64,000 nt of DNA from Lytechinus pictus (lineage: Eukaryota), in NCBI RefSeq assembly GCF_037042905.1, contig NC_087250.1:21578001-21642000 (forward strand), written 5' to 3'. The position numbers and the translations under genes are program-made. The notes beneath the pieces are model-generated. The model was not told the DNA's origin, made no database searches, and was given only the letters and a program-made list of their open reading frames with translations. Below are positions 22,278 through 31,162 of the stretch, one piece after another. Each line of letters begins with the position of its first letter. Positions within the stretch are counted from its first letter, which is position 1.

Positions 22278-22498
22278 CATGTTATGTTATGTTATACCGA
22301 GGTTTTTACCTGACTGCTAAGAAAGCACGAATGCCTGTGAGCAAGCAACCAGGGGACCGACGGCTTAAAGTCATCTCCGAGGGACCTGGTAATGAGGATA
22401 AATGCCTTACCAAAGGGCACTAGCGCACCACTTGGGAATCGAACCCGGGTCACCGGAATACGAAACCCCCGCTCTACCGACTGAGCTATCGCGCCTCC
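22278..22498 (-). mobile_element. tRNA-derived SINE (family shared with 62076-62271)
   Basis: The minus strand reads GGAGGCGCGATAGCTCAGTCGGTAGAGC...GGTTCGATTCCC (A and B boxes), followed by an unrelated body and a (CATAA)n tail. Confidence 0.9.
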
Positions 22499-29951: not shown

Positions 29952-30008
29952 TATATATATATATTTGTGTGTGTGAGGGTGTGTGCGTGTGTGTGTATGT
30001 ATATATAT

Positions 30009-30080
<72 letters not shown>
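29952..30080. repeat. (TA)n/(TG)n/(CA)n compound microsatellite
   Basis: Read directly. Confidence 0.95.
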
Positions 30081-30083
<3 letters not shown>

Positions 30084-30227
30084 GTTATACATGTACAACA
30101 GCTTTGGCAACTCTTTTTATTTTAAATATTGTAAAGAAATGAATGAAGAGAACAATGGTAGGTGTAGTATAAATCAAGGTTACCCAGAGCTATCTACCCT
30201 TTGGAAAAATTGGTGATGCCGAAAAAA

Positions 30228-30297
30228 TGTCTCTGCCGGGAATCGAATCCGGGCCCCCAGCTTTGAACGCCGGTGCCTTAACCGCTAGACCACAGAG
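30228..30297 (-). tRNA. tRNA-like copy (UCA anticodon), lacking the first 2 nt and with G53 changed to A
   Basis: Reverse complement of the 30478-30549 cloverleaf with the T-run retained. The inversion breakpoint lies in the 5' acceptor strand. Confidence 0.55.
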
Positions 30298-30477
30298 GTA
30301 TGGTGTATGGTATACGTGTACTGTATAAAAGCAATAGCTTTGATCCAGCTGAGGCATGGCGGCTTGTCATTGTTCAAAACCCACCTTCACCCGACAAAGG
30401 AAATTATAATTGGTATAGTGTCGAAAATCTGTCTATCTGACGGTCAATCGGATCGGGGTCGCCCTAGCCACTAACCT

Positions 30478-30549
30478 GTCTCTGTGGTCTAGTGGTTAAG
30501 GCACCGGCGTTCAAAGCTGGGGGCCCGGGTTCGATTCCCGGCAGAGACA
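30478..30549 (+). tRNA. tRNA-like gene with a complete cloverleaf and anticodon TCA (opal-suppressor-like, not tRNA-Sec architecture)
   Basis: Acceptor GTCTCTG/CAGAGAC plus discriminator A; D arm GTCT/AGGC with loop AGTGGTTA; anticodon stem CCGGC/GCTGG with loop GT-TCA-AA (anticodon at 30511-30513); 4-nt variable loop; T arm CCGGG/CCCGG with loop TTCGATT; TTTTTT terminator at 30550-30555. Confidence 0.75.
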
Positions 30550-30555
30550 TTTTTT
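30550..30555 (+). terminator. RNA polymerase III T-run terminator
   Basis: T6 immediately follows the discriminator base and is retained in all three copies. Confidence 0.7.
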
Positions 30556-30884
30556 CGGCATCACCAATTTTTCCAAAGGGTAAATAGCTCTGGGGAACCT
30601 TGATTTAAGCTACGCCTACCATTGTTCTCTTCATTCATTTCTTTACAATATTTAGAATAAAAAGAGTTGCCAAAGCTGTTGTACATGTATAACTTCACAC
30701 ATTTGTATACTTTCTCCCATACGTGTACTGTATCAAAGCAATAGCTTTGATCCAGCTGAGGCATGGCGGCTTGTCATTGTTCAAAACCCACCTTCACCCG
30801 ACAAAGGAAATTATAATTGGTATTGTGTCGAAAATCTGTCTATCTGACGGTCAATCGGATCGGGGTCGCCCTAGCCACTAACAC

Positions 30885-30956
30885 GTCTCTGTGGTCTAGT
30901 GGTTAAGGCACCGGCGTTCAAAGCTGGGGGCTCGGGTTCGATTCCAGGCAGAGATA
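30885..30956 (+). tRNA. Third tRNA-like copy (UCA anticodon) with three substitutions in the T and acceptor stems
   Basis: Identical to 30478-30549 except C49T, C63A and C72T. Followed by T6. Confidence 0.6.
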
Positions 30957-31162
30957 TTTTTTCGGCATCACCAATTTTTCCAAAGGGTAGATAGCTCTGG
31001 GGAACCTTGATTTAAGCTACGCCTACCATTGTTCTCTTCATTCATTTCTTTACAATATATATATATATATTGCGCAGAGTAGGCCTAGATGTTTTACACA
31101 TCGTTTCGGCCTCGTAATCATTAAAGGGGGAACAAACATGCACGATACGAGGCTGTGATAAT

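Follow-up and report, generated by a model that had tools for sequence, protein, structure and literature searches.

Penelope-like elements (PLEs) are recognised by partial tandems, inverted pieces, a 30-40-bp tail and insertion into (TA)n targets, and non-autonomous multimeric forms of them exist (PMC8557442, available text). The tail has been explained by two internal start sites of the reverse transcriptase, RT (PMC11167929, available text). Animal non-LTR retrozymes are non-coding tandem units of a few hundred bases that form multimers; their mobilisation by PLEs has been proposed, and their circles are closed by RtcB (PMC7229834; bioRxiv 10.64898/2026.07.22.740005; available text of both), which circularises them in vitro (PMC7229834). 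In tricRNAs, TSEN cuts a pre-tRNA at 37/38 and RtcB closes the intron (PMC6614914, available text).

Here we compare with these systems a repeat of Lytechinus pictus, found in a 64,000-nucleotide stretch of NC_087250.1 (positions 21,578,001 to 21,642,000, forward strand; hereafter the window). A sequence-only reading had picked out a tRNA-like cloverleaf with a TCA (UGA-reading) triplet and proposed that it might serve a mobile element as an opal suppressor, or as a tRNA mimic used in transcription or processing of the element RNA. With little doubt the repeat is a non-autonomous PLE-type element, and the triplet is very probably not maintained for UGA decoding.

A non-coding repeat with a tRNA-like cloverleaf

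The three tRNA copies in the window all sit in a single insertion of a repeat that is 407 bp long and non-coding (Table 1). There is no ORF within the unit, and long ORFs close to copies belong to other elements. An 18-nt word from the D-arm has 2,177 exact matches in the 812-Mb genome (control word: 0), and the copy number is roughly 2,000. One array holds at least 16 units. The six units compared inside array L033 are identical (6/6); differences within arrays amounted to 0-3 bases in two arrays, 2 in L018, 5 in L003 and 8-22 in L161, against mostly 8-46 between arrays (1-3 in one pair). Such within-array identity fits multimers made from a single template, later amplification of the DNA being the alternative. 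An insertion 290 kb away (G000:C6:21318018-21318647; loci L002, L003) duplicates the one in the window almost exactly but has three units where the window has two. Other elements have entered some copies: one unit of a tandem array contains a palindromic MITE-like insert of about 430 bp (L008:1735-2160), and several units in L072, L073 and L270 are split in the anticodon arm by an element with CACAGTG-type ends.

Table 1. Features of the insertion and its flanks, in positions of the window.
Feature	Position	Strand	Basis or remark
(TA)n/(TG)n microsatellite target, left side	29952..30081	.	sequence
Inverted 5'-truncated piece, unit ~190-407, holding tRNA copy 3	30076..30299	-	96% complementary to 30480-30701
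Junction sequence	30298-30311		directly before unit 1
Unit 1 of the 407-bp element	30312..30704	+	self-comparison of window
Antisense arm	30418..30477	+	predicted pairing with D-arm, T-arm, 3' acceptor strand and part of T-run
Intact tRNA-like cloverleaf	30478..30549	+	A and B boxes; triplet TCA 30511-30513; ARAGORN, Rfam
T6, Pol III terminator-like	30550..30555	+	sequence; family B has T6 too
PLE-type 'tail' between two preferred 3' insertion ends	30650..30704	+	3'-end counts
Unit 2, stopping at first preferred 3' end	30698..31056	+	self-comparison
tRNA copy 2	30885..30956	+	T-stem damaged, then T6
(TA)n target, right side	31056..31070	.	sequence

The intact copy is a 7/4/5/5 cloverleaf with a 4-nt variable loop and A73, and its anticodon loop (30509-30515) reads G32-T33-T34-C35-A36-A37-A38 (GTTCAAA). 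It matches Rfam RF00005 with 60.9 bits (E 9.8e-11, cut-off 29) and is called 'SeC (tca)' by ARAGORN, in agreement with the earlier description of a complete TCA cloverleaf followed by T6. The three copies noticed then all exist, but only one of them is intact: copy 2 has one broken T-stem pair (47.6 bits), and in copy 3 (30228-30299, minus strand; 42.0 bits) positions 1-2 are missing and pairs are broken in the acceptor and the T-loop. GT-TCA-AA is indeed kept in all three, yet this is uninformative: they derive from a single insertion, and the family is young, its best copies being 96-100% identical. Rightly, the cloverleaf had been kept apart from tRNA-Sec, which has a long variable arm and a 9/4 acceptor/T fold: here the variable loop has 4 nt, the fold is 7/5 and the best Rfam match is RF00005. 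The Rfam tRNA family search returned host Lys genes alone. The cloverleaf may give rise to a Pol III transcript of its own, about 78 nt long. Elsewhere in the window, 22423-22494 (minus strand) is an ordinary tRNA-derived SINE head (ARAGORN Arg-TCG) with no terminator; the remark that SINE heads of this window lack a T-run after their end holds for it.

The T-arm of the cloverleaf is identical to those of host tRNA-Gly(TCC) and tRNA-Glu(CTC). Over the whole module, Gly(TCC) shares 49-53 of 72 positions without gaps, G1-C72 and A73 among them, and Glu(CTC) shares 55-57 with gaps, its D-arm included. Compared with either, the acceptor and anticodon stems are rebuilt, and by sequence the parent is ambiguous between the two. 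G32 is atypical in tRNA. A +1 shift from Glu-CTC would place G, C and T at positions 32, 35 and 36, which supports the caveat, raised at the outset, of a one-base register shift from tRNA-Glu, with host Glu-CTC fitting better than Glu-TTC; G32 and C35 may be an accident of that shift. Host tRNA-Lys, tRNA-Gly and tRNA-Glu genes form large tandem clusters in the fetched sequences (L098-L125, L201-L228, L311-L318).

Penelope-type insertion marks

We counted insertion ends in fetched loci, a non-random set that had been selected for similarity or for a motif. Among these, 150 of 186 3' ends (67 + 83) fall at unit positions 350-370 or 395-407, that is, at two alternative ends about 40 bp apart, as in a PLE tail. 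The 95 free 5' ends are scattered, and 55 junctions are head-to-head inversions. Partial tandems are accompanied by inverted 5'-truncated pieces, and flanking sequences show copies inserted in (TA)n microsatellites. The tandem and inverted pieces, the (TA)n targets and the end distribution thus match published descriptions of PLEs (PMC8557442 and PMC11167929, available text), and the repeat is likely to be copied by a Penelope-like reverse transcriptase. Only 4 of the 95 5' ends lie at 183-193, the tRNA +1, where the insertions of a SINE with its tRNA head at the 5' end would begin. A linear monomer template starting at +1 or at base 38 was rejected, with 4/95 and 2/95 5' ends at these points and no pile-up. 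We also discarded the idea that inversion junctions are template switches across the predicted rod (see below), since 7 of 55 fell within 15 nt against a shuffled mean of 4.6 (p = 0.18).

Rfam found no type I hammerhead in the unit at E up to 5, and a hammerhead core pattern that was positive in 2/2 neighbouring PLE controls had 0 matches in families A and B of the repeat. A vestigial hammerhead at about 30580-30625 was considered and dropped: it has a partial core only, without the canonical pattern, and the stretch pairs inside the rod. The search for a partner was negative too: no PLE ORF runs on upstream of a unit in the fetched loci, nor did these loci contain an autonomous PLE sharing the 3' end. 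The PLE pieces in L031, L033, L043 and L157 have inserted nearby, in (TA)n targets shared with the units. One, which we take to be Neptune-like, is a 5'-truncated PLE with a C-terminal GIY-YIG domain (Pfam E 6e-4) plus an inverted copy (L031:5381-7700); its hammerhead core opens with A-U-G-A instead of C-U-G-A, and its 3' end is common to L156. Two partial ORFs, presumably Hydra-like, are 42% identical (L033:6055-7250 and L043:120-1150), and the L033 element has a canonical hammerhead core downstream of its ORF. Six metagenome stretches examined as possible relatives were all read as unrelated SINEs, repeats or chance matches; an unrelated metagenome contig (L167:2400-2668, minus strand) carries an 82-bp tandem repeat from a tRNA-like head. 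The Naiad pattern DKA-x-NN-x4-CK, one strict motif given in the supplement of PMC8557442, had 0 matches in the genome, a result that, coming from a single pattern, does not show absence of Naiad.

Two families and two folds

Family B is a rarer, older sister of the dominant family A, with 275 identities over 390 aligned columns (~70%). Their cloverleaves differ at 8 stem positions, and 21/21 pairs are kept, three of them through changes on both sides (2-71, 6-67 and 28-42). The A and B boxes and T6 are conserved in both families. Simulating the A/B stem changes with transitions only gave P = 0.0002; with CpG rates raised tenfold, P was 0.003 for the double changes, two of which lie at CpG sites, and 0.017 for the retention of all pairs. 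In 16 hand-picked copies, essentially a two-clade comparison, 94.3% of cells were paired, against 38-48% for slid structures. The two families differ at 10/72 positions in the tRNA and 32/133 in its flanks, which is not significant (p = 0.10). As judged from the pairing comparisons, the cloverleaf fold is under selection. The 21/21 pairs, the double-sided changes and the slid controls bear out the earlier view that the structure is maintained, and the compensatory stem changes proposed as a check on it were found.

A second structure is predicted to compete with the cloverleaf in longer RNA. The predicted fold of the unit has an MFE of -143.3 kcal/mol (z -6.38), and 0/100 shuffles were as good. 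Unit-length RNA is predicted to form a rod in which the antisense arm sequesters the D-arm and T-arm, along with the 3' acceptor strand and the T-run, and only the anticodon arm protrudes. Inside the unit, the anticodon stem has a probability of 0.9998 and the other three stems have less than 1e-6, whereas in the tRNA alone the acceptor closes with P(1-72) = 0.997. Given this pairing, the cloverleaf should be able to form only if the upstream arm is missing or has found another partner. Family B has a similar predicted fold and a conserved antisense arm; when 54 rod pairs were mapped from A to B, 34 were unchanged, 10 were kept by one change and 2 by two, and 8 were broken. The 5' acceptor strand sits in or at the apex loop of the rod, yet covaries with the 3' strand. 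In these models both folds, rod and cloverleaf, appear maintained.

Variation of the triplet

Tabulating the anticodon across copies, a check suggested along with the sequence-only reading, gave a split outcome: position 36 varies and positions 32-35 are constant. In the consensuses of five subfamilies, bases 32-35 (G32-U33-U34-C35) and 38 do not change, base 36 is A, C or T, and base 37 is A or G. TCA is the commonest state, with 98 of the 109 copies not chosen by loop, 15/17 copies of family B and 132/187 sampled copies of family A, the last from a sample enriched for TCC and TCT. It may be ancestral, as family B has it.

Genome-wide matches to the arm gave 61 copies with a base other than A at 36 (38 TCC, 16 TCT and 7 TCG). 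Decay by itself should favour the transition TCG. Both variants are tied to diagnostic bases in the flanks: TCT to a downstream base (11/15 vs 2/162 in others), and TCC to an upstream (13/14 vs 11/101) and a downstream one (20/21 vs 27/128), all with p <= 6e-10. Mean divergence from the consensus is 10.8% for TCT (n=11), 9.4% for family B (n=17), 6.3% for TCC (n=24) and 5.1% for older TCA copies (n=26), and 2.1% for young TCA copies (n=98, enriched by selection). Going by the flank links and divergences, base 36 changed at least twice in lineages that went on amplifying, which makes selection for UGA decoding unlikely.

A possible route through tRNA splicing

We favour, tentatively, the reading that the conserved cloverleaf is a module of a PLE-type non-coding repeat and acts as a tRNA-splicing signal for the element's own RNA, not as a UGA reader. 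How this could work is somewhat less secure: host TSEN and RtcB might treat tandem copies as a split pre-tRNA and release a unit-length circle. The transcript in question would begin at +1 of copy n and reach T6 of copy n+1. Its tRNA body would combine the 5' half of the first copy with the 3' half of the second, and an insert of unit length would sit at 37/38. The anticodon-intron pair would consist of G32 and the C35 that lies one copy further on, leaving 36-38 bulged. After two TSEN cuts at 37/38, the excised unit-length 'intron' would be made circular by RtcB, and rolling reverse transcription of this circle would produce tandem arrays. Doubtful in its fullest form is a ribozyme-free retrozyme, with the whole element spliced by TSEN and RtcB as its circular RNA genome, the loop serving as a splice signal that is complementary to itself (G32 of one copy to C35 of the following one) and the mature-sized UCA tRNA arising as a by-product.

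Under the splicing model, the constancy of G32 and C35, the freedom of base 36, the covarying acceptor stem and the multimers would all find an explanation. The geometry of the dimer fits TSEN: base 32 lies 6 nt from the cut and the bulge measures 3 nt, as in fly pre-tRNAs, in which a G-C swap of the proximal pair had little effect on splicing (PMC6614914, available text). In the native dimer the T-arm of copy n is sequestered (P 0.01) and that of copy n+1 forms (0.80). Several results stand against the model. The exchanged anticodon stems reach only P 0.02-0.04, and the bulge-helix-bulge form lies above the MFE by about 8 kcal/mol in 3/4 dimers and by 14 in the window's own dimer; the split pre-tRNA is thus a possible geometry, while the predicted ground state is a different one. 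The central helix contains two U-U mismatches, and in a fly reporter unpairing positions 2-3 inhibited splicing (PMC6614914, available text). That three loop changes should all lie in 36-38 has a probability of about 0.08 by chance. In host tRNA genes a run as short as T4 marks the end; with T6 after base 73 in both families, a Pol III dimer would therefore need rare read-through, and in a Pol II transcript the upstream arm would trap the D-arm. The outer acceptor stem is not specific evidence, because in this model every tandem tRNA forms it (0.61-1.0), shuffled spacers and host Glu tandems included. We therefore rejected the notion that the antisense arm forces a split tRNA body, the shuffled-spacer and host-tRNA controls behaving alike.

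Contigs containing the unit are present in 20/24 listed sequencing runs. In four runs that we guessed to be RNA, contigs, which show no ends, strand or level, cover the whole unit, and two unique flank bins are empty in 4/4. Run X10 has two dips in contig coverage, one immediately 5' of +1 and another within the tail, and runs X14 and X17 have no dip at +1. Whole-unit coverage in the runs guessed to be RNA says nothing on mature tRNA, because these are contigs only.

Alternative readings

The conserved A and B boxes and T6, the folding of the isolated tRNA, the covarying acceptor stem and the antisense arm retained in family B also speak for another role of the tRNA module in the same PLE-type element. 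It might supply Pol III with promoter and terminator, or be cut by RNase P/Z so that the RNA acquires an end, and the arm would shield the longer RNA from cleavage. This is conceivable, if doubtful: 5' ends do not pile up at +1, most insertions reach upstream of it, Pol III would halt at T6 with the remainder of the unit untranscribed, and the constant G32-C35 is left unexplained. The general option of a tRNA mimic for transcription or processing, put forward from the start, is supported. A tRNA gene captured in a rod-shaped, retrozyme-like RNA, whose rod the RT needs and whose cloverleaf is a slowly decaying relic, would agree with a tRNA not significantly more conserved than its flanks and with the CpG sites of two of the three double changes. 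We consider it unlikely, since the 5' acceptor strand covaries with the 3' strand despite its place in or at the apex loop, and the tenfold CpG rates still gave low P values for both measures. The complete gene with its terminator, and a cloverleaf that forms only without the upstream arm, could instead point to a discrete tRNA-sized RNA acting in trans, as a decoy or loop-loop partner with no decoding; a trans product would presumably be of little benefit to the copy that carries it, and this reading seems to us quite unlikely.

An opal suppressor tRNA encoded by the element and kept to read UGA, for example in the ORF of a partner PLE, is very improbable. U33, a purine at 37 and T6 are present, and TCA prevails in old family B and dominant family A. 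Against this, UCA is not conserved across lineages, the flank-linked TCC and TCT subfamilies having amplified against 7 TCG copies; G32 is atypical; the three partial PLE ORFs seen are all open without TGA; and neither the fetched loci nor the Naiad motif search, with its one strict pattern, yielded a UGA-containing partner ORF. The varying position 36, the lack of such a partner in these searches and the predicted masking of the cloverleaf in the unit RNA all tell against the suppressor function proposed at first. Naiad PLEs with in-frame UGA do exist, but these use SECIS elements (PMC8557442, available text).

Comparison with known systems

The roughly 2,000 high-scoring 'SeC/Sup(TCA)' calls in this genome are modules of the repeat and should not be annotated as tRNA genes. 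In the open-access literature searched we found no PLE derivative with a tRNA module, and no mobile element using tRNA splicing in place of a hammerhead for its replicative circle; the family may have an entry in Repbase or Dfam. If the splicing model is true, the host tRNA-splicing pathway replaces the hammerhead in making that circle.

Non-autonomous Chlamys (MRC1) and Naiad elements resemble the repeat in their head-to-tail multimers, inverted 5' pieces, 30-40-bp tail, (TA)n targets and want of a canonical hammerhead; the main text of PMC8557442 mentions tRNA once, with regard to Sec recoding. The likeness to tricRNAs holds under the splicing model only, and there the part of the 'intron' would be played by an entire mobile unit, formed between two tandem copies that themselves have no intron. 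With tRNA-derived SINEs the repeat shares a tRNA-derived module, A and B boxes and the nature of a non-autonomous retroelement; unlike theirs, its module is internal, is followed by T6, has covarying stems and sits in a tandem and inverted PLE architecture. It shares with animal non-LTR retrozymes the short non-coding tandem units and multimers, but no type I hammerhead was found in it, it carries a whole tRNA-like gene with an antisense arm, and its circle is only proposed. The repeat works like a retrozyme but does not qualify as a retrozyme, a SINE, a tRNA-Sec or a suppressor: it is a non-autonomous element of PLE type that lacks a hammerhead and carries a tRNA mimic whose structure is under selection.
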